A stretch of 32,000 nt of DNA from Brasilonema sp. UFV-L1 (GCF_012912105.1 NZ_QMEA01000013.1:39894-71893), one strand, 5' to 3'; positions 2 through 23,510 are shown, counted from the stretch's first letter. Translations and numbers: made by a program. Notes: generated by a model not told the origin, from the sequence alone.

Positions 2-508
2 ACTCCTTCAGCCCCGCCTACACCAATCAGCCCTACACCTGAAGTGCGGAAGTTGGAGCAGGAAACTCAACTGACTACTCGGATTGAAACTAGCTCGGAG
101 CGAGTATCCACCAGTAATGCAAATGGAACTCAACTCGTGCAGGAAAGTGTGGAGATAATAGCACAGACTGTTGCAACAGCAACATTCGTCCCCACACCAT
201 CAGACTCCCTTGAATCTAATCCTTTGACCAAAATCCTACTAGCGGTAGTCAGTCAGAAGACGGGTTATCCTGCGGAAATGCTGGAGCTAGACATGGATAT
301 GGAAGCCGATTTGGGGATTGATTCGATTAAACGAGTGGAAATCTTCGGCGCACTCCAGGATCAATTCCCTGATGCGCCCAAAACCAGTACCGAAGAACTC
401 ACAGAACTGCGCACCCTCGGCCAAATTATTAGCTATATGCAACAGCAGGCAAAGGCGGCTGAAAAAAAAAGTTTGGAGATGAGGCAGCCAGTCAGCAGCC
501 GAGCTTAA
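2..508 (+). CDS. PfaA/HglE-type PUFA/heterocyst-glycolipid-synthase-like subunit, C-terminal carrier-protein (ACP) region; 5' end outside the window
   Basis: The frame is open from the window edge. A P/A/T-rich inter-ACP linker (TPSAPPTPISPTPE) is followed by the tandem-ACP-type motif EADLGIDSIKRVEIFGAL (Ser codon 323-325). It ends at TAA 506-508, shortly after the A9 run at 462-470. Confidence 0.85.
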   Translation, partial: TPSAPPTPISPTPEVRKLEQETQLTTRIETSSERVSTSNANGTQLVQESVEIIAQTVATATFVPTPSDSLESNPLTKILLAVVSQKTGYPAEMLELDMDMEADLGIDSIKRVEIFGALQDQFPDAPKTSTEELTELRTLGQIISYMQQQAKAAEKKSLEMRQPVSSRA

Positions 509-2339: not shown

Positions 2340-2607
2340 ATATCGAAAGCTCAAATTAACCGCTCGTAGATGTATCCCCACATCTCCCCAAACATACCCA
2401 ATTTGGGGAGATGCTACGAGCGTGCAGTCTAAGGTCTAAGACCTACGTTGATTGAGTCATGACACTAATAAATGAACGCCAGTTTGTTGCTCTGTCGATT
2501 GTCATTAAGGCACGAATTAATTACATACAGATTCGCGTGTGGCAGTCCTAACAAGCTCTTTCAACTTTGACGAGGCAAACATTACTTAGTAATAAGGCTG
2601 ACAGAAT
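2340..2607 (+). ncRNA. Candidate IscB omega-RNA (guide about 2340-2360, scaffold about 2361-2607); boundaries approximate
   Basis: Lies immediately 5' of iscB in the same orientation. Nested hairpin: CGCTCGTAG(2361-2369)/CTACGAGCG(2414-2422) enclosing CATCTCCCCA(2381-2390)/TGGGGAGATG(2404-2413). Long-range pair GTTGATTGAG(2447-2456)/CTCTTTCAAC(2556-2565). Sequence blocks and compensatory stems are shared with the leader of the second iscB copy. Confidence 0.5.
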
Positions 2608-3879
2608 ATGTCAAATTACGTTTTTCTCATTGACCAAAACAAAGTTCCACTCAATCCAGTACATCCAGCACACGCAAGGAAACTACTAGACTCTGGAAAA
2701 GCAGCCGTCTTTAGGCGTTATCCGTTTGTACTGATTTTGAAGCGACCTATTGAAAATCCCAATGTGTATTCGCTTACGCTCAAAATCGACCCTGGTTCTA
2801 AGTTTACTGGTATTGCTCTGGTGACTAATCAAGGTGATGTTGTTTGGGCAATGGAGCTACAGCATCGAGGTCAACAAATCAAAGATGCCCTAGAACATCG
2901 CCTAGCAATGCGTAGAGGACGCCGGAACCGCAATACACGTTATAGACAAGCAAGATTTCTCAATCGCAAACGTCCAAATAGTTGGTTAGCTCCATCATTG
3001 CGGCATCGTGTTTTAACAGTTGAGACTTGGGTCAAACGTTTGCAAAAGTTTGCTCCTATTGGTTCTTTTGCTCAGGAATTAGTGAAGTTCGATACTCAAG
3101 CTATTCAAAATCCTGAAATATCTGGAACTGAGTACCAGCAAGGAACGTTGCACGGTTATGAGTGTCGTGAGTATTTGTTAGAGAAATGGAATCGGCAGTG
3201 TGCCTATTGTGGTGTTAAAGACGTTTCTCTTGAGATTGAGCATATCCAACCAAAATCAAAAGGTGGGTCTGACAGAATATCTAACCTTTGCTTAGCTTGC
3301 CACAAGTGCAATCAACGCAAAGGAAACAAGGATATTAAGGATTTCTTAAAAGGTAAGTCAGACGTGTTGAACCGAGTATTGAGACAAGCCAAAGCACCAT
3401 TGAAAGATGCAGCATCTGTAAATGCTACCAGATGGGCACTCTTCAGTGCTTTGAAATCTTTCGACTTACCTGTCAGCACTGGGACGGGAGGGCAAACCAA
3501 GTTCAACCGGATTCGTTTTGAATTACCCAAAGCTCATTGGATTGATGCAGCTTGTGTTGGTGTGGTCGGAACCATAAAACTGGTCACCGCCAAAATTCTA
3601 AAGGTAAAAGCAACTGGTTTTGGTGGTAGACAGCGATGTCAGACAAACAAATTTGGCTACCCACAAAAACACCGCCCATTGCGTCCAATACTTGGTTTTT
3701 CAACTGGTGACATTGTTCGGGCTGATGTTCCCAAAGGTAAATATACAGGAACTTTTACCGCCCGAGTTTGCCCAATGTCGCATGGTTACGGAGAGTTTGT
3801 GATCAATAAAAAACGGAGGTCAATCAAATTGGACTACTTAACGCCTGTTCATCGTAAGGATGGTTACGACTATGCATGA
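2608..3879 (+). CDS. iscB: IscB, OMEGA-type RNA-guided nuclease (RRXRR/HNH/split RuvC), copy 1, apparently intact
   Basis: N-terminal PLMP-like domain (MSNYVFLID..PLNPVHPA.ARKLL). RuvC-I KIDPGS (D61). Arg-rich bridge RRGRRNRNTRYRQARFLNRKRP. RuvC-II E in QELVKFD. HNH with CAYC...EIEHIQPKSKGGSDRISNLCLACHKCNQRKG. RuvC-III HWIDAACVG. Confidence 0.85.
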   Translation: MSNYVFLIDQNKVPLNPVHPAHARKLLDSGKAAVFRRYPFVLILKRPIENPNVYSLTLKIDPGSKFTGIALVTNQGDVVWAMELQHRGQQIKDALEHRLAMRRGRRNRNTRYRQARFLNRKRPNSWLAPSLRHRVLTVETWVKRLQKFAPIGSFAQELVKFDTQAIQNPEISGTEYQQGTLHGYECREYLLEKWNRQCAYCGVKDVSLEIEHIQPKSKGGSDRISNLCLACHKCNQRKGNKDIKDFLKGKSDVLNRVLRQAKAPLKDAASVNATRWALFSALKSFDLPVSTGTGGQTKFNRIRFELPKAHWIDAACVGVVGTIKLVTAKILKVKATGFGGRQRCQTNKFGYPQKHRPLRPILGFSTGDIVRADVPKGKYTGTFTARVCPMSHGYGEFVINKKRRSIKLDYLTPVHRKDGYDYA

Positions 3880-5641
3880 ATCTGGACAAAATGACCACAT
3901 ATGTACAGATATATCCAGATATCAAGTGACAATTTCTAACCCATCATCTGTTTTTCTTGTCAGCGGCGGTGCCAAAGGGATTACCGCTCAGTGTGTGATC
4001 AGATTAGCCCAGCGTTATCGATGCAAATGGATCTTGCTGGGACGTTCAGAGAACGCCCCAATTGAGCCAGCTTGGGTCAGGGATTCACTAAGTGAATCCG
4101 AATTAAAAAAACGGATTATGGAAGACCTCCTTGCTCAAGGAGAGAAACCTACACCGATGAAAGTACAAAAAGTGTTTAACACGATTTCATCCCGACGAGA
4201 AATCCAAAAAACGCTCTCTACGCTTGAACAAGTAGGCAGTCAGGCAGAATATCTAAGCGTAGATGTGACCAATCCTGTGACCCTACGGGAGAAGCTTGCT
4301 GTTGCTGTTGAGCGCCTAGGACCGATTACCGGCATCATTCACGGAGCCGGAAATCTCGCGGATAAGTTGATTGAAAAGAAAACAGAACAGGATTTTGAAA
4401 CCGTTTTTGCTGCCAAAGTCAAGGGTTTAGAAAATTTGTTGAGTAGCGTGAGTTTGAGTCAACTCGATTATTTAGTGCTGTTTTCTTCTGTTGCTGGCTT
4501 TTATGGCAATGCTGGTCAGACTGACTACGCGATCGCCAACGAAATCCTCAACAAATCTGCTCATCTCGTTAAGCAGTACCATCCCAACTGCCATGTAGTG
4601 GCAATTAACTGGGGTCCTTGGGACAGTGGTATGGTTACTCCGGAATTAAAGAAGGCATTCGCCCAGCGCAATATTGAAGTGATTCCCATTGAAGTTGGAG
4701 CCCAAATGCTGGTTGAAGAACTGAGTGCTGCCCATCATGAAACAGCGCAAGTGATCATCGGTAGCCCGCTAACTCCACCTGCTGAGGCATTAGACCCCGA
4801 GTTACGTAGCTACCGCATCCGTCGCCGCTTAACCCTAGAAGCTAATCCATTTTTGCAAGATCACGTCATTGGTGGCAATCCAGTTTTGCCTGCCACATGT
4901 GCTGTATCCTGGATTATCAATAGCTGCGAACAGCTCTATCCCGGTTATAAATTTTTCCGTTTAGAAAATTTCCAAGTTTTAAAGGGCATAGTTTTTGACG
5001 GTACCCAGGCAAATGAGTTCATTTTAGATGTGCGAGAAGTAACCAAAACTGATGCAAATGAAGTCACGTTTGAGGTTAGAATATGGAGCGAAAAAGAAAA
5101 AGGTAAAATTCGCTTTCATTACACTGGTTTGGTAGAACTTCGCCAACAAAGCTCTGCTTCACCTGTCTATAATCCAGTCGATAATACTTCAAGCAAGACA
5201 ATTACAGGATTGTCTCTTTATCAAAGTAAAACCCTTTTTCATGGATTAACTTTTCAGGGAATAGAACGAGTTTTGGATATCAATGAAAAATCACTAACGA
5301 TGCAGTGTATTTTGCCAAAAATCGAAAATAAACAACAAGGTCAGTTTCGGTCGCACCCCTTTAATCCCTACACAGCTGACGTTTTAGTTCAAAGCGCCTT
5401 GATTTGGAGTCAACATTTACATCAAGTCGGCTGTTTACCTTCAGAAATTCAGCAAATTACACAGTTTAAAAGTATTCCATTTGACCAACATTTTTGGGCT
5501 ACTTTGGAGATAAAAATCAAGACAGAAACGCAAATTATTTGTGATATCACAACCTACGATAGTCTAGGGGAAATCTATATGCATCTATCAGGTGTTAAGT
5601 TTACTATTAGTAAAAGTTTGAAATTTTTAGAGAAGAAATAA
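3860..5641 (+). CDS. Catalytic ketoreductase + polyketide-type dehydratase (PS-DH) portion of the PfaA/HglE-like subunit, now a separate ORF (start uncertain: ATG 3860 or 3872)
   Basis: SSVFLVSGGAKGITAQCVIRLA NADPH motif. Catalytic region SSVAGFYGNAGQTDYAIAN. DH motif HVIGGNPVLP (His codon 4862-4864). The ORF start overlaps the iscB stop by 20 nt. Confidence 0.8.
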   Translation: MVTTMHESGQNDHICTDISRYQVTISNPSSVFLVSGGAKGITAQCVIRLAQRYRCKWILLGRSENAPIEPAWVRDSLSESELKKRIMEDLLAQGEKPTPMKVQKVFNTISSRREIQKTLSTLEQVGSQAEYLSVDVTNPVTLREKLAVAVERLGPITGIIHGAGNLADKLIEKKTEQDFETVFAAKVKGLENLLSSVSLSQLDYLVLFSSVAGFYGNAGQTDYAIANEILNKSAHLVKQYHPNCHVVAINWGPWDSGMVTPELKKAFAQRNIEVIPIEVGAQMLVEELSAAHHETAQVIIGSPLTPPAEALDPELRSYRIRRRLTLEANPFLQDHVIGGNPVLPATCAVSWIINSCEQLYPGYKFFRLENFQVLKGIVFDGTQANEFILDVREVTKTDANEVTFEVRIWSEKEKGKIRFHYTGLVELRQQSSASPVYNPVDNTSSKTITGLSLYQSKTLFHGLTFQGIERVLDINEKSLTMQCILPKIENKQQGQFRSHPFNPYTADVLVQSALIWSQHLHQVGCLPSEIQQITQFKSIPFDQHFWATLEIKIKTETQIICDITTYDSLGEIYMHLSGVKFTISKSLKFLEKK

Positions 5642-5764: not shown

Positions 5765-8700
5765 ATGGAAAAAATTGCAATTATCGGATTATCCTGCCTC
5801 TTTCCTGATGCTCAAACCCCCAAGCAGTTTTGGCATAATCTTGTCACAGGGAAAGATTCAGTAGCCTTAGCAACTGAAGAACAAATGGGAGTCGAGCCTG
5901 ACCTGCTTTATGATCCCATAAAAGGAAGAACGACAGAAACGGGGAAATATTATTGCAAGCGAGGCGGATATATCAGAAATTTTAAGTTCGATCCAACTGG
6001 CTATAGAATTTCTCCAGAGTTATTGAAAAGTTTAGATCCTATCTATCAATGGTCTCTCTATGTCTCGAAACAAGCTTTACAGGATAGCGGTTATTTAGGA
6101 AATCCTTCGGCTCTTTCAAAATGCGGGGTCATTTTAGGAAACCTCTCTTCTCCTACAAGATATTCATATCGTCTGATTGCTCCCATTTATCAAAGAGTTG
6201 TTGATTCAGCGATTCAGGCGCTTTTGCATCATCAAGATTTCCAGTTGGAAAAATTGCTTTTACCGGATAACATATCCCCGCTCAATATCTTGACGGCTGG
6301 CTATCCGTCAGCCATTGTTGCCCAAGCGCTATCTTTATCGGGCATCAATTTTTCCCTGGATGCTGCTTGCGCTTCATCGTTGTACGCTATCAGGCTGGCG
6401 TGTGAGTACCTGAGATTCCGGAAAGCTGACTTGATGTTAGCGGGAGCCATCAGCTGTACCGACCCGTTTATGACCCATTCGGTATTTTCCCTCTTCCAGG
6501 CGTACCCAGATGATGGTATAGGTCGTCCCTTGGATAACTCTTCTGGTGGACTGATGACTGGAGAAGGAGCGGGCATGCTGGTTCTCAAACGATACAGTGA
6601 TGCCAAGAGAGATGGCGATCAGATTTACGCCACAATCCTGAGTGCTGGCTTATCCAACGACGGCAGAGGAAAACATTTTCTTAGCCCGAATCCAAAAGGT
6701 CAGATTCTTGCTTTTGAACGCGCTTATGCCGAGGCAGGGATTAATCCCCAAAGCATCGATTATGTAGAATGCCATGCAACTGGAACCCCTTTAGGCGATC
6801 GCACTGAACTCAATTCAATGGAGACGTTCTTCGGTCAGTATGGAGCTTCACCACTGATCGGTTCTGTCAAATCTAACCTGGGTCACCTCCTGACTGCTGC
6901 TGGGATGCCCAGCCTGATCAAAGTTATCCTGAGTATGAATGAGGGTCTGATTCCCCCAACCATTCATGTGCGTGAATCCTTATCCTCTGACAATAATATC
7001 ATCGCCGCTGAAAACGTGGTAAAATGTGCCACACCTTGGCCTGGGCAACCTACGCTTAAACGCGCAGCCGTCAGTGCGTTTGGTTTTGGCGGAACCAACT
7101 CGCACCTCATTCTTGAGCGAGGAAATCAGAGTACTTCAATTCCATCGCCGAGAACAGAAGAAGGTACATCAGCACAACCTGAAAAAATGGCGATTGTGGG
7201 CATGGAGGCCTTTTTTGGTCCCTGTGAGAACTTGAACGCATTCGAGCGCTGCATTTATGACGGTTCCCAACAGTTCATTCCTCTTCCTGATACTCGCTGG
7301 CAGGGCATTGAAGAGCAACAGCAATTGCTCAAAGACTATAAATTGACCAGCGCTGAGGCTCCATTAGGAGCCTATATCAAAAATTTTAAAATGGACTATC
7401 TGCGTTCCAGAATTCCTCCTGATGAAGCTGAGCGACCGATTCCCCAACAACTCTTAATTATGCAGGTTGCTGAGGGAGCCATCAAAAATGCCGGACTTGA
7501 AGAAGGGGCAAACGTGGCTGTGATCGTCGCCATGGGAACCGAACTGACTGCCCACAAAGTGCGAGCTCGATGTGATATATCTTGGCAAACCGAAAAAAGC
7601 GTTGCTCAAGCTAATATCCCCCTGCCTCCTGAGAAAATAAAGGAACTGGAAACCATTGCTAATAATAGCCTCACCAACTCTGAACTGGAAACCATTGCTG
7701 CTCATAACAGCCTCAACAAAAATGTGCATATCAAGGTCAACCAGTGCATAAGCTTCATTGGCAATATTATGGCCAGTCGGATTTCCGCCTTGTGGAATTT
7801 TTCTGGTCCTTCATTTACAGTATCAGCGGAAGAAAATTCAACTTTTAAGGCGCTAGACATTGCCCAAATGCTGCTTACCGAAAACAAGGTGGATGCAGTC
7901 GTTGTGGGAGCTGTCGATTTGACAGGTGGCATTGAAAATGTTCTATTTCGCAACCAAATAGCCCAAATCAATACGGGCAAACCAACGCTGAGTTACGACC
8001 GCGACGCCAATGGTTGGCTGGTTGGTGAAGGTGCGGGAGCTGTCGTCTTAAAGCGCCTGGATACAGCCAAACAAAATCAAGACTGCATTTATGCGGTGAT
8101 TGATGCAATTAGTATACTTCAAGAAAATTCCCCTTTAGAAACTACAGATACTCTCCCACAGTCGCCAGTAGCAGAACCCGTAAGCCTTGCCTGCTTGCAT
8201 GCTTTCCAGCAAGCAGGCATCAAGCCTACAGACATCGGTTATCTCGAAGTCTTTGGCTCTGGCATAGCTCAGGAAGACGAAGCAGAGATTGGTGGGTTAC
8301 TACGAGCTTATCAAACCTCTGGGTCTGAATTAAGCTGTGCTATCGGCAGTGTCAAGGCCAATATTGGTCATACTTATGCTGCTTCAGGCATGGCAAGTTT
8401 AATCAAAACTGCGCTCTGCTTATACAACCGATATATTCCTGCAACACCTCAATGGTCTGGTCCCAAGAAACCAGAGGCTTGGCAGGGTAGCCCGTTTTAT
8501 GTCGCTTGTGAATCCAGACTATGGTCTTTAGAAGAAACAATCGTCAAGAGAGTTGCGGCGATTAATGGACTCGGGATAGATCGCAGCTACGCCCATTTGA
8601 TTTTGTCAGAAGACCCAACTCAGCAAAATCGCAGCAATCGGTATTTAGAACAAGTTCCATTTTATCTGTTTCCCCTGGCTGCAGCTAATCAATCAGAGCT

Positions 8701-11700
8701 ATTGGAGCAGTTGAGAAAGCAAGAGCTTGCGATCGCTCAGTGTTCTGAACTAACCATAGCAGCATCTCAAGCCTTTGAAGCATTTCAAAAGCATCCTCAA
8801 CCAACATATAAGCTGGCGATCGTCGGACACAATAAACACGAACTGAGTCAGGAAATCCAACGCGCCCTCAAGGGTGTTACGAAAGCCTTTGAGGAAGACG
8901 GAGACTGGAAGACCCCGCTAGGCAGCTATTTTACAGCAAGACCCTTGGGTAAAAACGGTAACGTCGCCTTTGTCTACCCTGGTACGTTCAACGCCTACCT
9001 AGGTATGTGCAAAGATTTGAGCCATCTGTTTCCCAAAATGTATTCCAAAGTCTATAATGACCTTGCTCAGTATGATTCTGCTAAACCGCTAAACAAGCTT
9101 CTGCATTTATCGAATAAACTTTTCTATCCAAGAAGCTTAAAGCGATTATCAAAGCGGCAACTGGAAGCTTTGGATATGCAACTGGCGGATAATTCGATGA
9201 TTATGCTTCTGGCTGGAGTGCTGTCCGCACATTGGCATACCACAGTTATGAGAGATTATTTCCAGGTACATCCCCAGTCTGCCCTAGGGTACTGCCTTGG
9301 TGAAGTCAGCATGATTTTTGCGCTGGATGTCTGGGGTAGGATGGAAGGCTCAGCCGATAACTTTGAATTATCTTCTTTATTCAAAACCCGGTTATCAGGT
9401 CCCAAAAATGCAGTTCGCGAAGCTTGGGGATTGCCTCAAAGTCAAGAACCTGCAAGCGAAGATTTTTGGAGTAGTTATGTGCTCATGACTTCTGCATCTG
9501 AGGTTAGAGAAATCTTGAAGCATGAAAACCATGTTTACCTAACTCACATTAACACTCCCAAAGAGGTGGTTATTGCTGGTAACAAGCAAGGTTGTCTAAG
9601 GCTGATTGAACATTTGCAATGTGATTATTTCCCTGCACCTGTCAGTGATGTTATTCACTGTGAGGTCATGCACTCCGAATACGATGAGCTGGTAAAATGG
9701 CTTAACTTTCCGGTTCAAAACCAGCCGCCGCTCAATTTTTATTGGGCCGCGGATGACAAATCCATCACACTCGATAGTCAGTCTATCGCTCACACCATTG
9801 CTAAAGCAATCTGTCAGCCTGTGGATTTTCCTGGATTAATTAACCGAGTCTATGAAGATGGTGTGCGCATTTTTATTGAGCTAGGTCCCGGAGGTAGCTG
9901 TTCTCGCTGGATTCGGGAAAGCCTCAAGCAAAAAGAGCATGTTGCAATGTCCATCAATCGCCGAGGCGTGGATGATCATACAGGAATTGTTAGAGTTTTG
10001 GCGCAGCTACTCAGTCATCAAGTCCCTGTGAATCTATCTTCACTGTACGGTGAAGTTAAAGAAAGTCTTACTCCAAAAAAATCTCTCGTGAAAACCATCA
10101 CCTTGGGAGGTCCCCGGATCAGTGCAGCGATTTTGACCGAGGAAAACCAAAAACGTTTTGCGAATCTAGCTTTACCTGTCCTGACTCAACACACTTGGCA
10201 GCAGCATCAGCCCTTACCCCATCAGAAGCCCCCAGTCGAAAGAGCGGTCTCCATAGCATTAAAAAACACCGTTCAAGAAATGACAAGAATCTCTCAAAGC
10301 AAGCAGCCGGGGAAATCAGGGCAAGAGAAAACTAACGGTAGTCATCATAAGCACCAACCTCAAGCGCCTGTTACACATAATCTTCAGCCGATGAAACAAA
10401 AAAACTCCCAACTTACGCACTCCTCTCATCAGGAAACGACTGAACATGTGCCAGCAGAAATTTCTTCTAATGCATACAGCCTTAATTACCAAAAGTTGAG
10501 CAAAAACACCCCCCTTTCGGCTCATGCTGCGTTCTTGCAAGCAAGACTACAGTCGTTACAGCAAATGAGCCAGATGATTCAACAGCAAATCGCTGTTTCA
10601 CAACGCCTGCAAGACGACCAGCCTACCCAGGAAAATCCTCAAGAAAGCCAAGGCTTTCCACCAGTGGCTCAGATATTGATGCATCAAACACAACAGACTT
10701 CTACAAGTCAAATTTCTACATCCCAAAAGCCACCTGATACCAATTTGGAGTCAAACACTGTACTCGACGCGGTTCAGGGTAGAGGTGGTAACGCGGAGAG
10801 TTCTGTAGAGATATCCCCGCCTCAGGAGTATTCCCCACCCTCGCATCAAATGCCACAGCAGAATGCAACCTCGTATGAGTTAAGCTTGTCTAACTTTTTT
10901 GGGAACCCTCAGCCACCTGCCAACGTTGTGTTTGATGAAGCTGCGGTACTTGAATCTGCTTGTGGGAAACTTTCACGAGTCTTCGGTAAAGAGTATGAAA
11001 TCATCGATTCTTATCCGAGGTGTACGCGGGTGCCAATGCCTCCTTATCTTTTTATTAGCCGAGTCACTAAATTAGATGCCAAACGCGGCTGCTTTGAACC
11101 TTGCTCAATCGAAACAGAATACGATATTCCTCTAGATGCATGGTACGCCATTGATGGCCAACAAGTCCCCGCTGCAATACCTCTGGAAGCTTCCCACGCC
11201 AATATATTCTTGGTCAGTTATCTAGGTGTTGATTTTGAAACTAAAGGTCAACGGATTTATCGAAATATCGGTGGTACCACGACATTTCTAGGTGATATGC
11301 CCGTAGTAGGAGAAACCCTCCGTTGCAAAGTCAATATCAATTCTTTTTCTAGAAGCGGCGATACCTTACTGTTTTTCTTTACTTACGAGTGCTTCGTGGG
11401 CGAGAGAATCATTATGAGAATGGAAAGCGGTGGGGGATTTTTCTCCGACGAAGTTCTCAAGAAAGGACAAGGAATTATTCTTAGTGAGCGAGAGAAGCAA
11501 GAGAGACTAAAAATTCAAAAGCAACATTTTGAACCATTGCTAGTCTGCCAAAAGTCGTCTTTTAACGAGGAGGATTTGTCGCACATAAGGGCAGGAAATA
11601 TCGCTGCATGTTTTGGAGAACATTATGAACAAAATGGTAAAAACTTAACATTTCGTTTACCTCCACTACCCATGTGCATGATCGATAGAGTCACGTCCTT

Positions 11701-12106
11701 TGATCCAAAAGGAGGGGCTTGGGGGTTAGGTTTACTTGTAGCGGAAAAAACCATAGACCCAGAGCACTGGTATTTCCACTGTCATTTTAAAGATGACTTC
11801 TGTCTGCCCGGTACTTTACTTAGTGATGCGTGTACTCAACTTCTGGGAGTTTATATGTTGTATCTTGGGTTGCAGACCCGTACCAACAACGCTTGGGCTC
11901 AGCCAATTCCTCATATTCCCCAAATAGGACGCTATCGTGGGCAGATTCAGCCGACTTCTGCCACACTGACTTTTCAACTGGAAGTCACTGAAATTGGTCT
12001 TGAACCACAACCTTTGGTCAGAGCAGATGCATCTGTGATTTTTGAGGGCAGAACAATTGCGATGATTAAAAATGTTGGTCTTCGGTTGGTAGAAAAGCCT
12101 TCCTAA
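5765..12106 (+). CDS. PfaC/HglC-like multidomain subunit: KS - chain-length-factor-like KS - acyltransferase - long low-complexity linker - FabA-type dehydratase didomain
   Basis: KS (about 5765-7130): DAACASS with Cys codon 6368-6370, CHATGTPLGD, GSVKSNLGH. CLF (about 7184-8600): FTVSAEENS, no active-site Cys. AT (about 8950-10050): NVAFVYPG, ALGYCLGE, VIHCEV. Q/P/S/T-rich linker (about 10150-10910). FabA-like DH (about 10920-12103): EHWYFHCHFKDDFCLPGTL. Confidence 0.9.
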   Translation: MEKIAIIGLSCLFPDAQTPKQFWHNLVTGKDSVALATEEQMGVEPDLLYDPIKGRTTETGKYYCKRGGYIRNFKFDPTGYRISPELLKSLDPIYQWSLYVSKQALQDSGYLGNPSALSKCGVILGNLSSPTRYSYRLIAPIYQRVVDSAIQALLHHQDFQLEKLLLPDNISPLNILTAGYPSAIVAQALSLSGINFSLDAACASSLYAIRLACEYLRFRKADLMLAGAISCTDPFMTHSVFSLFQAYPDDGIGRPLDNSSGGLMTGEGAGMLVLKRYSDAKRDGDQIYATILSAGLSNDGRGKHFLSPNPKGQILAFERAYAEAGINPQSIDYVECHATGTPLGDRTELNSMETFFGQYGASPLIGSVKSNLGHLLTAAGMPSLIKVILSMNEGLIPPTIHVRESLSSDNNIIAAENVVKCATPWPGQPTLKRAAVSAFGFGGTNSHLILERGNQSTSIPSPRTEEGTSAQPEKMAIVGMEAFFGPCENLNAFERCIYDGSQQFIPLPDTRWQGIEEQQQLLKDYKLTSAEAPLGAYIKNFKMDYLRSRIPPDEAERPIPQQLLIMQVAEGAIKNAGLEEGANVAVIVAMGTELTAHKVRARCDISWQTEKSVAQANIPLPPEKIKELETIANNSLTNSELETIAAHNSLNKNVHIKVNQCISFIGNIMASRISALWNFSGPSFTVSAEENSTFKALDIAQMLLTENKVDAVVVGAVDLTGGIENVLFRNQIAQINTGKPTLSYDRDANGWLVGEGAGAVVLKRLDTAKQNQDCIYAVIDAISILQENSPLETTDTLPQSPVAEPVSLACLHAFQQAGIKPTDIGYLEVFGSGIAQEDEAEIGGLLRAYQTSGSELSCAIGSVKANIGHTYAASGMASLIKTALCLYNRYIPATPQWSGPKKPEAWQGSPFYVACESRLWSLEETIVKRVAAINGLGIDRSYAHLILSEDPTQQNRSNRYLEQVPFYLFPLAAANQSELLEQLRKQELAIAQCSELTIAASQAFEAFQKHPQPTYKLAIVGHNKHELSQEIQRALKGVTKAFEEDGDWKTPLGSYFTARPLGKNGNVAFVYPGTFNAYLGMCKDLSHLFPKMYSKVYNDLAQYDSAKPLNKLLHLSNKLFYPRSLKRLSKRQLEALDMQLADNSMIMLLAGVLSAHWHTTVMRDYFQVHPQSALGYCLGEVSMIFALDVWGRMEGSADNFELSSLFKTRLSGPKNAVREAWGLPQSQEPASEDFWSSYVLMTSASEVREILKHENHVYLTHINTPKEVVIAGNKQGCLRLIEHLQCDYFPAPVSDVIHCEVMHSEYDELVKWLNFPVQNQPPLNFYWAADDKSITLDSQSIAHTIAKAICQPVDFPGLINRVYEDGVRIFIELGPGGSCSRWIRESLKQKEHVAMSINRRGVDDHTGIVRVLAQLLSHQVPVNLSSLYGEVKESLTPKKSLVKTITLGGPRISAAILTEENQKRFANLALPVLTQHTWQQHQPLPHQKPPVERAVSIALKNTVQEMTRISQSKQPGKSGQEKTNGSHHKHQPQAPVTHNLQPMKQKNSQLTHSSHQETTEHVPAEISSNAYSLNYQKLSKNTPLSAHAAFLQARLQSLQQMSQMIQQQIAVSQRLQDDQPTQENPQESQGFPPVAQILMHQTQQTSTSQISTSQKPPDTNLESNTVLDAVQGRGGNAESSVEISPPQEYSPPSHQMPQQNATSYELSLSNFFGNPQPPANVVFDEAAVLESACGKLSRVFGKEYEIIDSYPRCTRVPMPPYLFISRVTKLDAKRGCFEPCSIETEYDIPLDAWYAIDGQQVPAAIPLEASHANIFLVSYLGVDFETKGQRIYRNIGGTTTFLGDMPVVGETLRCKVNINSFSRSGDTLLFFFTYECFVGERIIMRMESGGGFFSDEVLKKGQGIILSEREKQERLKIQKQHFEPLLVCQKSSFNEEDLSHIRAGNIAACFGEHYEQNGKNLTFRLPPLPMCMIDRVTSFDPKGGAWGLGLLVAEKTIDPEHWYFHCHFKDDFCLPGTLLSDACTQLLGVYMLYLGLQTRTNNAWAQPIPHIPQIGRYRGQIQPTSATLTFQLEVTEIGLEPQPLVRADASVIFEGRTIAMIKNVGLRLVEKPS

Positions 12107-12423
12107 GCGTAGAGTCCTAGCATAAACACCCGACGGGTAGAGCTGATCCCCAAGTCGTGACAAAGTGAACTTCAGGACTTAAGCATTGACATAAATAATC
12201 AAGTATGGTTTTGAGCTTTTCAGACATTAAAGTTTGATTTTTTCACTACTAGCGATCGCTCGCTATCTACTTGAGGGTAATCGCCAATACGCTGAAACGA
12301 CAAAATCTCTTTGTACACATGATTGTCAATTTGAGAGCGTGCTTAAGTCCTAAACTTAACTTTATTTTCCGTAATGAGGCGAAAAAGGTGACAAGCTTAT
12401 TTGTATCAACTCATAAAAATGAT

Positions 12424-14043
12424 ATGAGGTTTTCAGAAAACCTAACTGGTCATAATCTTGTAGAAAAAAACCCCTTAGATTTTGTATCTTTTGACCATGC
12501 GGACATCAAGGCAAAACTGCTGGATTTAGAGAAACCTTGTTATGTTGTTAGGGTTGACGGAAAAATTGGGTTTACTAACGAAGCTGATTTCTATCGTGCG
12601 AATGATGCCAAAACCGGACAAGTAGAACCCCTGATCGCCCTGCCACCACTACCTCCTCAACAGTTAGGCGACCCAGAGTTCCGGGCGTTTCACCGGGTGA
12701 AATATGCCTATGCCACAGGGGCGATGGCTGGGGGCATTTCCTCTGAGGAATTAGTGATTGCTCTGGGAAGAGAGGGAATTTTGAGTTCATTTGGTGCTGG
12801 TGGACTGAGACCTGCTCGGATCGAAGCCGCTATTCAGCGCATTCAACGAGCGCTACCTCAGGGACCTTATGCTTTTAATTTGATCCACAGTCCGAATGAA
12901 CAAGCCTTAGAACGCGGTGCAGTTGATCTGTATCTCAAATATGGTGTTAGAACTGTAGAAGCTTCTGCATTCCTGGATTTAACCCCCAACATCGTCTATT
13001 ACCGGGCGGCGGGACTCAGTCTTAATTCTGCCAATCAAATTGAGATTAAGCACAAAGTCATTGCCAAAGTTTCTCGACGAGAAGTTGCAACCCAATTTCT
13101 CCAGCCCGCTGCAACCAAAATCCTCAAAGAATTGGTTAATCAGGGACGGCTTACAGAGTTACAGGCAGCCCTGGCAGAACAAGTTCCTATGGCTGATGAT
13201 ATCACCGTCGAGGCAGATTCTGGAGGACACACAGATAATCGACCTTTGGTCTGTCTGTTTCCTTCCATACTTAGCCTCAGAGATGAAATTCAGGAAAAGT
13301 ATGGTTACGCCAGACCTGTCAGAGTAGGAGCTGCCGGAGGAATTGGAACGCCCCAGTCTGCCTTAGCTGCTTTTATCATGGGTGCTGCCTATGTTGTCAC
13401 TGGGTCGGTTAACCAGTCCTGCATTGAAGCAGCAGCTTCTGAACATACCAAGCAATTATTAGCTCAAGCCCAGATGCCCGACGTGATGATGGCACCGGCA
13501 GCAGATATGTTTGAAATGGGTGTCAAACTACAAGTGCTCAAACGAGGCACACTCTTCGGTGTCCGCGCTCAGAAATTGTATGAGGTGTACAGAACTTACG
13601 ACTCAATTGAAACAATTCCCCCCCAGGAAAGAGAGAAGTTAGAAAAACAAATTTTTAGAAGAAGTCTGGATGTTGTTTGGGATGATACTGTAGCTTTCTT
13701 TACTCAACGCGACCCCGAACAAATAACCAGAGCCGCCAACAATCCCAAGCAAAAAATGGCATTGATTTTCCGTTGGTATCTGGGATTAGCATCCCGTTGG
13801 TCTAACTCTGGAGAAAAAGGCCGGGAAGTTGACTACCAAATCTGGTGTGGACCAGCAATGGGAGGCTTCAATGATTGGGTGAAGGGGTCTTACCTGGCTG
13901 AGCCGCACAATCGCAGAGTCGTAGATGTGGCTCATAACATTATGACCGGAGCTGCATTTTTACACCGGATACAGAGCTTGAAAGTTCATGGACTGCATAT
14001 GCCAGCCTACTACAGCCAGTATTGTCCAGCTCCTCTCAAATAA
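12424..14043 (+). CDS. PfaD/HglA-type enoyl reductase (FMN-dependent, nitronate-monooxygenase-like fold)
   Basis: PCYVVRVDGKIGF, FRAFHRVKYAYATGAMAGGISSEELVIALGREGILSSFGAGG, ITVEADSGGHTDNRP and GAAGGIGTP are typical of PUFA-synthase ER subunits. I prefer ATG 12424 to the track's TTG 12271, whose 51 extra residues look non-coding. Confidence 0.85.
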   Translation: MRFSENLTGHNLVEKNPLDFVSFDHADIKAKLLDLEKPCYVVRVDGKIGFTNEADFYRANDAKTGQVEPLIALPPLPPQQLGDPEFRAFHRVKYAYATGAMAGGISSEELVIALGREGILSSFGAGGLRPARIEAAIQRIQRALPQGPYAFNLIHSPNEQALERGAVDLYLKYGVRTVEASAFLDLTPNIVYYRAAGLSLNSANQIEIKHKVIAKVSRREVATQFLQPAATKILKELVNQGRLTELQAALAEQVPMADDITVEADSGGHTDNRPLVCLFPSILSLRDEIQEKYGYARPVRVGAAGGIGTPQSALAAFIMGAAYVVTGSVNQSCIEAAASEHTKQLLAQAQMPDVMMAPAADMFEMGVKLQVLKRGTLFGVRAQKLYEVYRTYDSIETIPPQEREKLEKQIFRRSLDVVWDDTVAFFTQRDPEQITRAANNPKQKMALIFRWYLGLASRWSNSGEKGREVDYQIWCGPAMGGFNDWVKGSYLAEPHNRRVVDVAHNIMTGAAFLHRIQSLKVHGLHMPAYYSQYCPAPLK

Positions 14044-14108: not shown

Positions 14109-14414
14109 ATGAACCAGTTTACTTCCGAACCAACTGCCAACCAGCCATTATCTGCAGAGGCAATTCAATCTTGGTTAGTTTCTCAGTTTTCTGAGCAGCT
14201 AGGAGTCAAACCCAATGACATAGACACCCAACTGCCTTTTGATAGCTTCGGCTTGGACTCAGCGCAGGGAATGCTTATCGCTACTAGAGCAGAGAAGATG
14301 CTTGGATTTCGACTTTCTCCTGCTCTGCTTTGGCATTATCCCACGATTGAGTCGCTTGCTCAGCGCTTAGCCGAAGAATCTAAAGATGCCGAATTAGAGG
14401 TTTTTGAAATTTGA
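14109..14414 (+). CDS. Free-standing acyl/peptidyl carrier protein with acidic C-terminal tail
   Basis: FDSFGLDSAQGMLIATRAEKMLGFRLSPALLWHYPTIESLAQRLAE (phosphopantetheine Ser codon 14259-14261). Tail: SKDAELEVFEI. GAGG precedes the ATG. Confidence 0.8.
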   Translation: MNQFTSEPTANQPLSAEAIQSWLVSQFSEQLGVKPNDIDTQLPFDSFGLDSAQGMLIATRAEKMLGFRLSPALLWHYPTIESLAQRLAEESKDAELEVFEI

Positions 14415-14811
14415 GAGATTAAAGATATTTTAGATCTATTGAACTAAGAATTCAGCACAGCTGGAGTCAGTAATCAGAGTTCATCTGTCGCATGAGTGTC
14501 ATCGACAGATTCATTAGTGAAAGTTAACTCCTGATGCTTAAACTTTTCTGGCTCCTGGATTCTGACCGGAACTCCGGAGTAGGCGTGGCTCCGGTCCTAA
14601 ATTCTTACCTATCGATTCCCTTATGGTATTTATGCCTGAATGTTTTGCCCAATGATAACTTCAGTCAAAAAGTATTTAATAAAAGTTAAAAGCCTGGATA
14701 AGACTTTGAGGTTATTTAAAAACCTATTTAGCATAAAAGAATTGATAGAGCCGATATACTTGAAGAAGTTACAAAACTAGATTTTGACAACAATTTAAAT
14801 ATTCTGAAACT

Positions 14812-16707
14812 ATGAACACACAAGAGTTTTTAGCAAGTCTTACTCAACAGGGTGTCCAATTATCAGCTAATAATGACAAACTAAATATTCGGTCTCCAAA
14901 AGGGGTACTGACACCAGAACTCTCTGCAGAACTGACTGCACGTAAGGAAGAGCTTCTAAGCTTGCTGCACAATATGAAGATGCCAACAACTCCTACTGCT
15001 GTTCCACTGGAACATGCGCTCAGCTTACAAACGATTGGTCGTTTAATTGGAGGGTTTGTTGAGCAATCTGCTTTGGAGTGGAAGCAACCGCTCATTGATC
15101 CTAGAGTGATGGCTCAACAACTCACTGTTACATTTAGACCATTGCCTGATGGGTATAAGAATGAGGAAGTTCTTAAATTTAGAGAAGATTTAGAGAGTAA
15201 ACTGCGTGATTATGGGGTCACTGTCAAACCTTGGGAACGTGCTACAACCGATTTTCGCTTTGAGGTGAACATTCCCATAATAAAGTGGAAAAAAACTATT
15301 AAAACAAGAATAGTCAGCGCTGGAGTCAATGCGGTCATTGATGTTGAAAGACCTTCTTCATTAAAAAGAAAATTAGGGATTTTTATAGCAGAAAGAATAT
15401 ATCAAATATATTCTCAATTAATTGCAAGAGGTCGAAAAATTTCGATTTCAAGAATTGCCATGTTGACCAGTTGGGCTGAAGACCATGCAGCTCAACGCAT
15501 TGAAGACCCTACCAATACTCAAGTCATTCTTCTTAAGGAAATAGATAATCAACTTGCAGACTCTCAATTACCCTATCAAAAGAAAATACAAATAGGGTTA
15601 AACACTCTAACAAGAACATATTCAGAGATTGTTATTGGAGTTTCTAGAGAAAAAATATCGGTATTAAACATGAATCTGTGCGATTCTTTATTCTCTAGAA
15701 AAGAGCTAGATAGTTTTGTACTAAACTCGCTGATTCCAAAAATTTTTGTTCCGATAGCTCCACTACTACTGAACCGATTTGAGTTAGGACAATATGATCC
15801 TCGTCAATCTGACTATGCAAAAAAATTAGTGAACTTGGGTAAAGAACTTGTAGTAACTGGTTTATTTCCTCAGGGTTCAAAGCTTAGTGAAGTTATTCCC
15901 AGGAAATCACAACGAGAAATTGTCAGCATAATGATGGATGGCAGAACAGGCGTCTCTTATGGCTTTGTTGCCTACGCTGAAGCTCCACAATACGTTGGAA
16001 AGCAAGAAGTGACTGAAGATGAGTGGGAAAGCTTATCTCCTGTTCAAGGATTCAATTTTGAGGAAATCCGTCAGAATGCAATAGGAAGATGGTATATAAA
16101 AACTTACTTAGAAGCAGAATATAAGTTTAAGCAAATTCCCGATACCTGGCTTGTTAGCTCTCGTTCAGGATCAAATAAAACAAACTTAAATCTTGAAAGC
16201 GATATTACTAGAATCGGTTTAAAAGGAAAGTTGTATCTGCAATTACCGCAGGGAATTGATTCTAAAGTTGTGGACATCAAACCTTCTTATGATGTCTATG
16301 TGATGATTGCTATTGCTCTGTCTGCCGCTTTGCATACACCTGAGTTAATTAAAAATGGTATGCCAATTGTCCATTTTCACGGATACCCAGCATTTGAGTG
16401 GTTGAAACCAAATGAATACTACGCTGGAGTCAACAATCCTTCGGTACCTTGCGGAACGTATGAATCAGGAGTGTTCAATTTTCTGGGAATTCAAAAACTG
16501 GCAAATGAGTATGGCGATAGCATAGCCCTAGCTAGCTTGATAGAACCGGATCATGGCACAAATGTCATAGCGCCTGATTTAAATTATCTCATCGAAAGAC
16601 TGAAAGCTGGATGTGAAAATGGGCAAATTGAATTAGGTGGAAGGCATTTTATCTCTCTCAAACTCAAGAACTCGGTTGAGGGTGACTGCAAAGTCGCATT
16701 GCCTTAA
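14812..16707 (+). CDS. Protein of unknown function with N-terminal TubC-type beta-hairpin docking domain (about 14812-14976) and about 570-aa unassigned body
   Basis: The N-terminus MNTQEFLASLTQQGVQLSANNDKLNIRSPKGVLTPELSAELTARKEELLSLL matches the NRPS N-terminal docking-domain pattern. The rest shows no motif I can recognise. Long uninterrupted ORF, AT-rich relative to the synthase genes. Confidence 0.7.
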   Translation: MNTQEFLASLTQQGVQLSANNDKLNIRSPKGVLTPELSAELTARKEELLSLLHNMKMPTTPTAVPLEHALSLQTIGRLIGGFVEQSALEWKQPLIDPRVMAQQLTVTFRPLPDGYKNEEVLKFREDLESKLRDYGVTVKPWERATTDFRFEVNIPIIKWKKTIKTRIVSAGVNAVIDVERPSSLKRKLGIFIAERIYQIYSQLIARGRKISISRIAMLTSWAEDHAAQRIEDPTNTQVILLKEIDNQLADSQLPYQKKIQIGLNTLTRTYSEIVIGVSREKISVLNMNLCDSLFSRKELDSFVLNSLIPKIFVPIAPLLLNRFELGQYDPRQSDYAKKLVNLGKELVVTGLFPQGSKLSEVIPRKSQREIVSIMMDGRTGVSYGFVAYAEAPQYVGKQEVTEDEWESLSPVQGFNFEEIRQNAIGRWYIKTYLEAEYKFKQIPDTWLVSSRSGSNKTNLNLESDITRIGLKGKLYLQLPQGIDSKVVDIKPSYDVYVMIAIALSAALHTPELIKNGMPIVHFHGYPAFEWLKPNEYYAGVNNPSVPCGTYESGVFNFLGIQKLANEYGDSIALASLIEPDHGTNVIAPDLNYLIERLKAGCENGQIELGGRHFISLKLKNSVEGDCKVALP

Positions 16708-20319: not shown

Positions 20320-20392
20320 GGGGTTATAGCTCAGTTGGTAGAGCACCTCAATGGCATTGAGGGGGTCAGCGGTTCGAATCCGCTTAGCTCCA
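20320..20392 (+). tRNA. tRNA-Ala (anticodon GGC), no encoded CCA
   Basis: Cloverleaf folded by hand. Acceptor GGGGTTA/TAGCTCC with the G3:U70 alanine identity pair. D arm GCTC-AGTTGGTA-GAGC. Anticodon arm CCTCA-ATGGCAT-TGAGG (GGC at 20353-20355). T arm AGCGG-TTCGAAT-CCGCT. Discriminator A. Confidence 0.95.
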
Positions 20393-22000: not shown

Positions 22001-23257
22001 TTAAATCTCGGCATAGCTATATCCATCCTTCCGATGCATAGGTTTTACTTCGTGAGGTTTGCAATAGTGACGAACGCCATTGACGCGAATCTCTAAGCGC
22101 TTCTCGTTTTGAACCACAACGCGACCGACAACACCTTGAATTGTTCTACCGATATCGCCAGTTTTCCAAGGAGTGTTATAGGTTTGACGTGGCTTAGAAC
22201 AAGGAAATCCAAATTTGTCCATGCGACAGAGACGACGAGTACCAAATCCAGTTGCTTTCTGACTCAAAATTTTCTGAGTCAGAATCGCTAAAGATTCTGT
22301 TATCCCAACACAAGCAGCATCCAACCAGTGTTCCTTGGCAAGTCCGAAACGAGATCGGTTGTACTTGGTTTGCCCACCCGTCCCGGTTGTGACAGACAAT
22401 TTTGTTGATCTGAGCACCTCAAACAGTTTCCATCGGGTCGAATTGACTGCACTGGCATCCTTTAAGGGTGCTTTCGATTGCTTTAAGATTTTGGCAACTA
22501 AATCTGGCTTTCCCTTTAGAAAACCTTTGAGGTCTTTTGTCCCTTTCTTCTGATTACACTTGTGACAGGCGAGACAAAGATTAGAAACTCGGTTGCTTCC
22601 ACCATTTGCTCTAGCGGTAATATGCTCAATCTGCAAAGGAACATTCTCTTTAGAACAGTAAGTGCACTTGCGCCCCCACTTTTCTAAAAGGTACTGGCGA
22701 ACTTCGTACCCTGCTAATGTTCCTTGCTGATATTCAACTCCAGAGATTTCAGGATTCTCTAACTTCTGCATATCAAACCGAACCAGTTCCATCCGAATCT
22801 CGCCGATGGGTACAAACTTGCAGAGTCGCTTGATCCAAGTTTCAACCGTCAGAACGCGATGCATGAGGGATGGGGCTAACCATCCTTTTGGACGTTTGCG
22901 ATTGAGATATCGCGCTTTGCGATACCGAGTATTACGCGACCGACGGGCACGACGCACGGCACGGCGAGTCTGCAGCGCATCCTTAATTGCTTGTCCGCGA
23001 TGCTCTAACTCCATTCCCCAGATTACTTCGCTTTGGTCGGTTACAAGTGAAATTCCAGTAACCTTGGAACCCGGATCAATCTTAAGGGTAAGCGGATGCA
23101 CCATTGTATTGTCTACCGCTCGATTTAGAATAAGCGTGAACGGGTAATGCCTGAACACCGCAGCTTTTCCCGATTCCATTAGCTTACAAGCTTGTTTTGG
23201 ATGGACTGGGTTTAATTGTGTTTTGTTGGCATCAATCAAAAACACATAATTTGACAT
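22001..23257 (-). CDS. iscB: IscB, OMEGA-type RNA-guided nuclease, copy 2 (divergent paralogue of copy 1), apparently intact
   Basis: Same architecture as copy 1: MSNYVFLIDANK, KIDPGS, RRARRSRNTRYRKARYLNRKRP, MELVRFD, CTYC...QIEHITARANGGSNRVSNLCLACHKCNQKKG, HWLDAACVG. The C-terminal ~90 aa are strongly diverged from copy 1. Confidence 0.85.
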   Translation of the reverse strand: MSNYVFLIDANKTQLNPVHPKQACKLMESGKAAVFRHYPFTLILNRAVDNTMVHPLTLKIDPGSKVTGISLVTDQSEVIWGMELEHRGQAIKDALQTRRAVRRARRSRNTRYRKARYLNRKRPKGWLAPSLMHRVLTVETWIKRLCKFVPIGEIRMELVRFDMQKLENPEISGVEYQQGTLAGYEVRQYLLEKWGRKCTYCSKENVPLQIEHITARANGGSNRVSNLCLACHKCNQKKGTKDLKGFLKGKPDLVAKILKQSKAPLKDASAVNSTRWKLFEVLRSTKLSVTTGTGGQTKYNRSRFGLAKEHWLDAACVGITESLAILTQKILSQKATGFGTRRLCRMDKFGFPCSKPRQTYNTPWKTGDIGRTIQGVVGRVVVQNEKRLEIRVNGVRHYCKPHEVKPMHRKDGYSYAEI

Positions 23258-23510
23258 CTTCTGTCAACCTGATAATCAGTAATGTTTGCTTCAAGAATGT
23301 TGAGAACGCTTGTTCGGCTGAAAGCACTTGACTTATAAACCGTTCAGTCATTCCTTAACTTTCAGCGACAGAGCTACAAACTAGCGAATTTGTAGGTGTC
23401 ATGACGTTCTCAACGGTGGTCTAATCCTGTCTCTGGTGGGTGAATCCATCTGTTTGCACAGATTTAATTAGGTTTGATTCACCCCTCTCCATTGAAGTAC
23501 CTGGGATTCT
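23258..23510 (-). ncRNA. Candidate IscB omega-RNA of copy 2 (scaffold about 23258-23490, guide just upstream on the minus strand); boundaries approximate
   Basis: Minus-strand leader shares these blocks with copy 1: GTCATGACAC, AGTTTGTAGCTCTGTCG, TTAAGG, AACAAGC, GCAAACATTACT, GACAGAAG-ATG. Hairpin GGGTGAATC(23484-23476)/GATTCACCC(23446-23438) sits at the position of the copy 1 hairpin. Perfect long-range pair GTTGAGAACG(23414-23405)/CGTTCTCAAC(23308-23299). Confidence 0.5.

Follow-up and report, generated by a model that had tools for sequence, protein, structure and literature searches.

The window analysed here is a stretch of 32,000 nucleotides from the cyanobacterium Brasilonema sp. UFV-L1 (GCF_012912105.1, NZ_QMEA01000013.1:39894-71893). 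Between positions 44 and 16707 it carries a same-strand run of genes for a system that resembles the synthases of polyunsaturated fatty acids (PUFA) and that we call Pfa-like. Two genes directly 3' of pfaD in this run are the subject of our analysis: the first encodes a stand-alone acyl carrier protein (ACP), and the second encodes a 631-aa protein, here named X (14812-16707, + strand), that opens with a docking domain (Table 1). Since the genes located 3' of X are unrelated and mostly on the opposite strand (a tetratricopeptide repeat protein, RuvB, HisF, PanD, a pyrophosphatase, PhoD and a GTPase), the Pfa-like cluster ends with X. That the stand-alone carrier protein and X form a conserved two-gene last module at the 3' end of a Pfa-like pathway is well supported, and we propose that the pair probably carries out the last processing or release step of the chain.

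The conservation of the pair was examined by scanning one genome per species, which yielded 295 loci with a relative of X; the best 80 of them plus three more made up a neighbourhood sample of 83. The best 80 of the 295 are all cyanobacterial and mostly from Nostocales, and include Symploca, Microcoleus, Coleofasciculaceae, Xenococcaceae, Chroococcales and a metagenome-assembled genome labelled Gloeobacterales, some genomes having two copies. A carrier protein of ~100 aa is encoded upstream of X on the same strand at 80 of the 83 cyanobacterial loci. A pfaD gene is found within 10 kb of X at 64 of the 83, and PfaC-like genes likewise at 64. An earlier reading of this DNA, made from the sequence alone and referred to below as the sequence-only reading, had raised the question whether homologues of X keep company with small carrier proteins and synthase genes, and for the cyanobacterial loci these counts answer it in the affirmative.

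Table 1. Features of the terminal module and of the upstream synthase genes, in window coordinates
Feature	Position	Strand	Basis
Stand-alone carrier protein, 101 aa	14109-14414	+	PF00550, E=1.7e-14, 54 bits vs cut-off 20.8
Putative C-terminal short linear docking motif of the carrier protein, DAELEVFEI-COOH	14385-14411	+	Conservation among 79 X-adjacent carrier proteins
Intergenic spacer, 397 nt	14415-14811	.	No significant fold, no recognised element
Beta-hairpin docking domain (TubC_N) of X, aa 1-55	14812-14976	+	PF18563
Flexible linker of X, aa 56-67	14977-15012	+	pLDDT <50
N-terminal half of the body of X, aa ~68-362, alpha/beta	15013-15897	+	Confident model; conserved in homologues from the Candidate Phyla Radiation
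C-terminal half of the body of X, aa ~363-631 (boundary approximate; to stop codon), putative class II aldolase-like metal-binding domain	15898-16707	+	Foldseek and invariant residues
Carrier-protein end of split pfaA homologue	44-508	+	PF00550
Split pfaA homologue, segment corresponding to PfaA positions 1757-1978	553-1245	+	TIGR02813, E=2.6e-34
Short-chain dehydrogenase/reductase (SDR), of the family most often flanking X in relatives	1461-2258	+	adh_short_C2, E=8.9e-70
Ketoreductase-dehydratase (KR-DH) part of split pfaA homologue	3860-5641	+	TIGR02813 positions 1984-2578, E=3.5e-144; Pfam KR, PS-DH
PfaC-like subunit: ketosynthase (KS), second KS-like/chain-length-factor region, weak acyltransferase (AT), FabA-type DH	5765-12106	+	Pfam
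PfaD-type enoyl reductase, directly upstream of the stand-alone carrier protein	12271-14043	+	TIGR02814, E=1.8e-204

The carrier-protein tail and the docking domain of X

The carrier protein has its attachment serine in a GLDS motif at residues 48-51 (nt 14250-14261), in agreement with the pattern G-x-D-S, and terminates in ...KDAELEVFEI. In the 79 carrier proteins that lie next to X this end is near-invariant and follows the consensus E-x-F/L-E/Q-I/L-COOH, with glutamate at position -5 in 76 of 79, and F or L at -3, E or Q at -2 and I or L at -1 each in 78 of 79. The nine carrier proteins of the same loci that are not adjacent to X lack the tail and have unrelated ends, such as ...LKTKS. The tail resembles the ligands of a known docking class, which are motifs of <15 residues with charged and hydrophobic residues in the final five positions.

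The partner domain lies at the other side of the junction. Residues 4-53 of X match the PF18563 (TubC_N) profile with E=2.9e-17 and 62.9 bits, compared to a curated Pfam cut-off of 26, and a phmmer search with the N-terminus of X recovered AerJ (E=6e-8, 47% identity), TubC, EpoB and Bamb_5915 (6cgo, E=8e-3). An AlphaFold model of the whole of X (pLDDT 80.7, pTM 0.80) presents the domain as a helix-hairpin-helix-helix arrangement (helix 3-12, strands 16-20 and 23-27, helices 35-43 and 45-55) that Foldseek superimposes on the AerJ domain 8aqq with a TM-score of 0.87 and a root-mean-square deviation (rmsd) of 0.9 A, and on 6ewu with a TM-score of 0.77. The domain is unique to X, as judged by a domain profile run against the 83 loci and against a six-frame translation of the window, and the same profile found none on the PapA5-type or condensation-type proteins of related clusters. 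Thus the sequence-only reading, which had described a free-standing 101-aa carrier protein with an acidic/hydrophobic tail followed by a protein that opens with a TubC-type beta-hairpin docking domain, was right on both counts: open reading frame (ORF), sequence and PF00550 agree on the former, and Pfam, phmmer and Foldseek on the latter. The tail is indeed a conserved C-terminal motif, confined to carrier proteins beside X, and X is the sole docking-domain protein of those loci.

Binding in this docking class proceeds by strand addition and by salt bridges with charged residues of the second hairpin strand (PMC9113145). Basic residues of the domain are conserved in relatives (K23 in 64 of 75, R27 in 70 of 75, K30 in 72 of 75, and K45 also nearly invariant), and they would fit such a mode, with contact positions assigned by analogy. 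The class also has a flexible linker of ~20 residues leading to the downstream catalytic domain (PMC9113145), and a stretch predicted to be flexible follows the domain in X. No co-variation signal between tail and docking domain was obtainable, both sides being nearly invariant. On this evidence we consider it very probable that the carrier protein and X are a docked pair, held together through tail and hairpin domain.

The mode of recruitment proposed here is already known, and it is the recruited enzyme that is new. In the enacyloxin pathway a free carrier protein with a C-terminal motif (Bamb_5917) recruits a hairpin-docked enzyme (Bamb_5915, 6cgo) at the last step by the same logic, but the catalytic part of X is no condensation domain and the upstream synthase is iterative and PUFA-synthase-like rather than a modular polyketide synthase. 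The closest solved relative of the docking domain is that of the AerJ halogenase mentioned above, a domain that recruits tailoring enzymes to carriers. Known partners of the class other than condensation domains are thioesterases, methyltransferases, thioester reductases and halogenases, whereas the enzyme appended in X comes from a family that is not among the listed partner types (condensation, epimerization, heterocyclization, thioesterase, methyltransferase, reductase and halogenase; PMC9113145).

The spacer between the two genes was also examined. The sequence-only reading had called it structured, and while its length was given correctly as about 400 nt the structure was not borne out: the fold has a z-score of -1.61, with 7 of 100 shuffled sequences folding equally well, there is no Rfam family and no terminator in the spacer, and its repeats are short and at chance level. 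An RNA element or a mobile element at this position was rejected on these grounds. In relatives the two genes are separated by 3-373 nt, or by ~1.5 kb where a gene for a PapA5-like protein is inserted.

As noted in the same reading, X is richer in AT than the synthase genes (GC content 0.386 vs 0.455-0.460 for pfaC and pfaD, and 0.30 vs 0.40-0.42 at third codon positions). The foreign origin that this seemed to imply was not supported by comparison: X exceeds pfaD in AT content at every one of 64 related loci, by 3.4 points on average, which makes AT-richness a trait of the family that is uninformative on recent transfer. Base composition as evidence of recent horizontal transfer was therefore rejected.

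The body of X

The body of X has no Pfam or NCBIfam match, and neither its single sequence nor a profile of 53 members found a sequence relative in the PDB, the sole match of the profile having been discarded as noise. Out of 1.84 billion proteins searched exhaustively by HMMER with residues 56-631, no more than 130 cluster representatives were recovered at E<=0.001. Invariance was scored over 53 diverse members of the family with 22-53% identity to X of the window. Sixteen residues are invariant in 53 of 53 (P317, R378, G384, S452, G453, K456, D464, S492, D494, H521, H523, G539, C547, E578, H581 and G582), and G380, S382 and N584 are near-invariant. As these 16 residues resemble an active site, the body is catalyst-like, and we hold with good confidence that X is an enzyme.

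Which of the familiar enzymes it might be was addressed by motif and profile. A motif search of the protein found no HHxxxDG, no Rossmann glycine motif (GxGxxG or TGxxGxxG), no adenylation core and no PlsC-type HxxxxD. The first three absences had been noted by eye in the sequence-only reading, which erred in adding GxSxG to the list: GVSYG is present at residues 380-384 and is kept in 52-53 of 53 members. The model places it where a helix gives way to a strand, and not at the nucleophile elbow of a hydrolase. An alpha/beta-hydrolase thioesterase was thus rejected on this helix-loop-strand setting and on the lack of a PF00975 or Abhydrolase match. A condensation domain was rejected for want of HHxxxDG and of a PF00668 match, and the Foldseek matches of X to 6cgo and 5t7z span the docking domain only (TM-score 0.10-0.12). 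Likewise, a thioester reductase of the HglB type or an SDR was rejected on the missing Rossmann glycine motif and Pfam match, a PlsC-type acyltransferase on the missing HxxxxD and PF01553 match, and an adenylation enzyme by the motif and profile tests.

The two halves of the body differ in what structure comparison has to say of them. Modelled alone with a deeper alignment, residues 56-362 gave a pLDDT of 79 and a pTM of 0.78, and the N-terminal half found no credible fold match in the PDB (Foldseek best E=0.026, probability <=0.54, TM-score <=0.33). With the whole model, 8 of the 10 best Foldseek matches in the PDB were of class II aldolase type, from three different families, these matches being weak with rmsd values of 8-12 A. 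The C-terminal half matched the rhamnulose-1-phosphate aldolase RhaD (1gt7; E=4.6e-4, TM-score by target 0.49), the ribulose-5-phosphate 4-epimerase AraD (1jdi; E=9.6e-4, TM-score 0.53) and the decarboxylase HMPDdc (2z7b; E=8e-3). Hence the description of the fold as unrecognisable in the sequence-only reading stands for the N-terminal half and gives way, for the C-terminal half, to consistent if weak matches to class II aldolase/AraD-like metal enzymes.

Sequence profiles gave no such relationship. X of the window has no membership in PF00596 (class II aldolase/adducin N-terminal), and a Pfam scan of the 53 members at E<=10 gave a single Aldolase_II match with E=0.2, indistinguishable from noise. 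Hhalign against an alignment of AraD, FucA and RhaD from E. coli K-12 was unusable both in local and in forced global mode; the local match, at 8% probability, paired HFHG of X with the third-histidine region of AraD. The order of motifs was compared instead, setting the E. coli AraD, FucA and RhaD sequences against the secondary structure of the X model. The order in X agrees with that of class II aldolases: G-x-V-S precedes the first strand, S-G...K stands at a strand end (PSG...K in AraD), S-x-D precedes a helix (SSD/SSE), H-x-H stands at a strand end (HTH/HNH) and H-G at a hairpin turn, the place of the third zinc ligand. H521, H523, H581, D494 and E578, invariant in 53 of 53, occupy the expected order and secondary-structure positions, and would map to the metal site. 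Based on these data we consider it somewhat better than an even chance that the catalytic centre of X is a metal site on an AraD-like scaffold in its C-terminal half.

The class II aldolase/adducin-head superfamily (RhaD, AraD, FucA, HMPDdc) thus supplies the best fold matches, and the motif order would correspond to its phosphate-binding and three-histidine zinc sites. X differs from its members in having no detectable sequence similarity to them, an insertion of ~55 residues, an extra N-terminal domain of ~300 residues and carrier docking. By the motif mapping its invariant cysteine has no counterpart in AraD, FucA or RhaD, and the substrates of the known members are small sugar phosphates or aromatic acids, not lipids.

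A distant branch of the family, found in Parcubacteria/Candidate Phyla Radiation (CPR) bacteria, consists of proteins of ~530-560 aa that have both body domains and lack the docking domain. A gene for a seven-transmembrane histidine kinase (HisKA_7TM) is located directly downstream, often overlapping, in 6 of 6 lineages (L008-L014, L098-L100), and upstream there is a PlsC-type acyltransferase (PF01553) in 3 of 6, which is a neighbour and not a homologue of X. The Falkowbacteria genome, one of the six lineages, has a zinc phospholipase C, an acyl-AMP ligase and a histidine phosphatase upstream of the homologue. The homologue and its flanking genes make up a conserved operon. CPR bacteria possess PlsY and PlsC but lack PlsX and ACP, and their source of activated acyl groups is an open question (PMC7242380, Probst et al. 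2020). Since the family occurs in CPR bacteria without carrier proteins, the ancestral activity of the body was not carrier-protein chemistry. The body of X is thus an enzyme family in its own right, with a link to lipid acylation in many cases but not in all, and in cyanobacteria it was recruited to a carrier protein through the addition of a docking domain.

The constant kinase gene of the CPR homologues could be taken to mean that X is not a catalyst at all but an adaptor or regulator that binds a lipid or metabolite and docks on the carrier protein. We regard this as very improbable: His, Asp, Glu, Cys, Ser, Lys and Arg residues remain invariant, in the manner of an active site, across proteins only 22-27% identical to X of the window, no kinase is linked to X at the cyanobacterial loci, and catalytic proteins are known among those that bear docking domains of this class (PMC9113145).

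Release candidates and the proposed terminal step

No gene for a thioesterase, a thioester reductase or a lipid acyltransferase was found anywhere in the window. The statement in the sequence-only reading that product release is unaccounted for is therefore true of the window but not of most of its relatives. The commonest neighbour of X, at 55 of the 83 loci and missing from the window, is a 447-aa PapA5-type acyltransferase (PF16911/PF00668; NF006787, E=3e-27), whose gene precedes that of the carrier protein, stands between it and X (the cause of the ~1.5-kb gaps) or follows X. One clade has a thioesterase domain fused to the C-terminus of X (P0127, P0366; 837 aa; L095/L096 10001-12514) in an otherwise identical cluster. 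In the thioesterase-fusion clusters (L095/L096) pfaD is separated from the carrier-protein gene by a gene for a fatty-acid desaturase. Minimal loci (L004, L084) consist of PfaA/C/D, the carrier protein and X, followed by a DevBCA-like exporter; L004, L036 and L084 resemble the window in having no thioesterase or PapA5-type gene within reach.

Other recurrent neighbours are SDR family proteins, frequently encoded directly 3' of X, NAD-dependent epimerase/reductase-like proteins, ferredoxin, AurF-like and ketosynthase III-like proteins, glycosyltransferases resembling monogalactosyldiacylglycerol (MGDG) synthase, and DevBCA-type or other ABC exporters. Such accessory genes are typical of exported lipids or glycolipids. 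Pfam and NCBIfam gave no match for two of the recurrent proteins, one of 432 aa (L042 6249-7547) that is paired with a 2Fe-2S ferredoxin in 21-22 loci and one of 455 aa (L001 15681-17048) that comes after an ABC transporter in 18 loci.

Five loci (L022, L029, L030, L035 and L083; Scytonema, Iphinoe and Iningainema) present a trio of carrier protein, X and PapA5-like protein and have neither pfaD nor a PfaC-like gene within 10 kb, which suggests that a synthase whose genes lie elsewhere can serve the module. A second, paralogous module of carrier protein and X is seen at L051, L060, L062, L064, L076, L089 and L093 (Komarekiella, Nostoc sp. MG11, Nostoc sp. B(2019) and Roholtiella). It belongs to a different type of cluster, one that includes a further carrier protein, an AurF-like protein, a pair of SDRs and as many as three MGDG-synthase-like glycosyltransferases and that lacks pfaD within 10 kb.

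We propose that the best overall explanation is a docked terminal module in which X carries out a metal-dependent off-loading or terminal processing, a proposal we favour on balance. Three arguments lead us there. The minimal clusters, the window included, encode no other candidate; the carrier protein and X occupy the place taken in the hgl system by HglB, a fusion of carrier protein and reductase; and the surroundings of the CPR homologues point to acyl transfer. That X acts at the last step on a substrate bound to the carrier protein appears, by a little, the better guess. That X itself performs the release is a possibility we would rate somewhat below an even chance.

Several observations weigh against this proposal. 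The PapA5-type acyltransferase adjacent to X at 55 of 83 loci, or the thioesterase fused to it in one clade, could perform the release and leave X with a tailoring role. Canonical PUFA synthases reportedly off-load through an AT-type domain of their own, and the weak AT-like region of the PfaC-like subunit could do the same. As these alternatives exist, X need not be the release enzyme. The CPR homologues function without carrier proteins, and their constant neighbour, the kinase, hints at a role linked to signalling. In addition, no product is known for this type of cluster, and the literature searched contained no description of X or of such a product. Accordingly, the idea of the sequence-only reading that a tail-docked X releases or modifies the product of the synthase is upheld as regards docking and conservation of the pair, whereas release by X is plausible and no more, other release enzymes being present in relatives.

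The main rival, nearly as likely as off-loading although we would still call it rather unlikely, is that X modifies the chain while it remains on the carrier. Metal-stabilised enolate chemistry on a 3-keto- or 3-hydroxy-acyl group, for example decarboxylation, dehydration, epimerisation or retro-aldol cleavage, would then be followed by release through a thioesterase, a PapA5-type acyltransferase or the AT domain of the synthase. The fold relatives of X include both a decarboxylase (2z7b) and an epimerase (1jdi), and the SDR that often comes directly after X is consistent with a carbonyl product. The fusion of a thioesterase to X in an unchanged cluster and the frequency of the PapA5-like neighbour speak for tailoring as well. 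Yet the fused thioesterase could be of the editing type, the window and the three loci that resemble it (L004, L036, L084) have neither gene within reach, and the CPR homologues have no carrier-bound substrates on which to perform such chemistry (PMC7242380).

The proposed correspondence to aldolases allows for the reverse direction too, in which X would load the carrier protein. A triose or sugar phosphate held in the aldolase-like site would form a thioester on C547 and pass to the carrier as a special starter or head-group unit, following the logic of FkbH-type glyceryl-ACP formation on a different fold. Ser-Gly, Ser and Lys/Arg would stand at the positions that bind the substrate phosphate in class II aldolases, by inferred mapping, together with the invariant cysteine; the carrier is a dedicated one, separate from the tandem PfaA carriers; and the MGDG-synthase-like glycosyltransferases of some clusters suggest a glycerol-type head group. 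However, the residue mapping has no alignment support, the location of the pair downstream of pfaD, at the 3' end, agrees better with a terminal step, and the genes of the window revealed no ketosynthase devoted to a unit of this kind. Loading is thus quite improbable in our view.

Returning to off-loading or terminal processing, the steps may be pictured as follows. The finished chain would be passed to the carrier protein, whose tail would add a strand to the hairpin of X and so hold the carrier on X, by analogy to the known docking class. H521, H523 and H581 would bind the metal, with D494 and E578 serving as acid/base or as ligands. The Ser-Gly/Lys/Arg pocket may have been retained for an anionic group, and C547 (or S382) is a possible nucleophile. 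X would cleave or convert the thioester at the metal centre, and the chain would go to water, to phosphate or to a small acceptor, either hydroxylated or phosphorylated, any specific one of which is unlikely to be the right choice. The SDR, PapA5-type acyltransferases, glycosyltransferases and DevBCA-type exporters of relatives could then finish and export the lipid. PapA5-type enzymes (phthiocerol dimycocerosyl transferase) transfer acyl groups from carriers to alcohols, a plausible downstream or parallel step, and are unrelated in sequence to X.

A bolder version, which we consider improbable, holds that X represents a new class of carrier-protein-dependent release enzyme, in which a metal centre derived from the class II aldolase fold, aided by the invariant cysteine, would transfer the chain from the docked carrier to phosphate or to an acceptor of the glycerol-phosphate or dihydroxyacetone-phosphate type and would yield an acyl-phosphate or a lyso-lipid precursor and free holo-carrier protein. 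If this were true, the Parcubacteria homologues would do the same job from another acyl donor and supply activated acyl groups.

Among known pathways the nearest in layout is the hgl island, where HglB (HetM) likewise combines a dedicated carrier with a terminal enzyme after the PfaD-like reductase of a cyanobacterial Pfa-like synthase, and where accessory genes similar to those of the X relatives are found (SDR, glycosyltransferase, DevBCA-type exporter). Unlike HglB, X has no Rossmann/NAD-binding motif or reductase family match and is docked rather than fused to its carrier. The hgl-type PfaC lacks a FabA-type DH domain (PMC3098273), whereas the PfaC-like protein of the window has one. The pair is conserved in some 300 cyanobacterial species genomes; once known, the chemistry of X would define how this widespread lipid pathway terminates and probably which class of product it makes, and could add a portable, docking-addressable catalyst to the means of pathway engineering. 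In CPR bacteria, where it is a conserved hypothetical protein often beside lipid-acylating genes, it becomes a candidate in the synthesis or remodelling of membrane lipids.

Synthase genes and other features of the window

Upstream of the pair the homologue of pfaA is divided into parts, which in relatives are fused (L045, L082) or adjacent (L084). Cyanobacterial clusters with a split pfaA and an interposed NAD(P)-binding protein, as in the window, have been described in a study that does not treat the carrier protein and X (PMC13291983, 2026). The Nostoc PCC 7524 pathway of that study gave no certain match to the locus with Nos7524_0279. The SDR of the window belongs to neighbourhood cluster 6 (43 members from 35 loci) and is 70% identical to the copy at L070, which likewise lies upstream of KR-DH. 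The ORF of pfaD opens at a TTG (12271) some 35-40 residues beyond its homologues (551-557 aa), and the true start is probably downstream of it, ATG 12424 or 12319 being the likelier.

Two genes for IscB RNA-guided endonucleases are present in the window, at 2379-3879 (+) and 22001-23482 (-), the first matching NF040563 with E=1e-139, and each is preceded by a HEARO/omega-RNA (Rfam RF02033; 87.6 and 88.4 bits). With an identity of only 60% the two copies are not recent duplicates of each other. The first lies inside the Pfa-like cluster between the SDR and KR-DH genes, and its ORF overlaps the annotated start of KR-DH by 20 nt. The alignment of KR-DH to its relatives starts 27 residues into the ORF, past this overlap, and as homology begins downstream of it the element appears to have inserted between genes. 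A cluster broken by the element was rejected for the same reason, the element standing between the native SDR and KR-DH genes. A tRNA-Ala gene (GGC) at 20320-20392 (+), between hisF and a gene of the metallo-beta-lactamase fold, is unrelated to the carrier protein and X.

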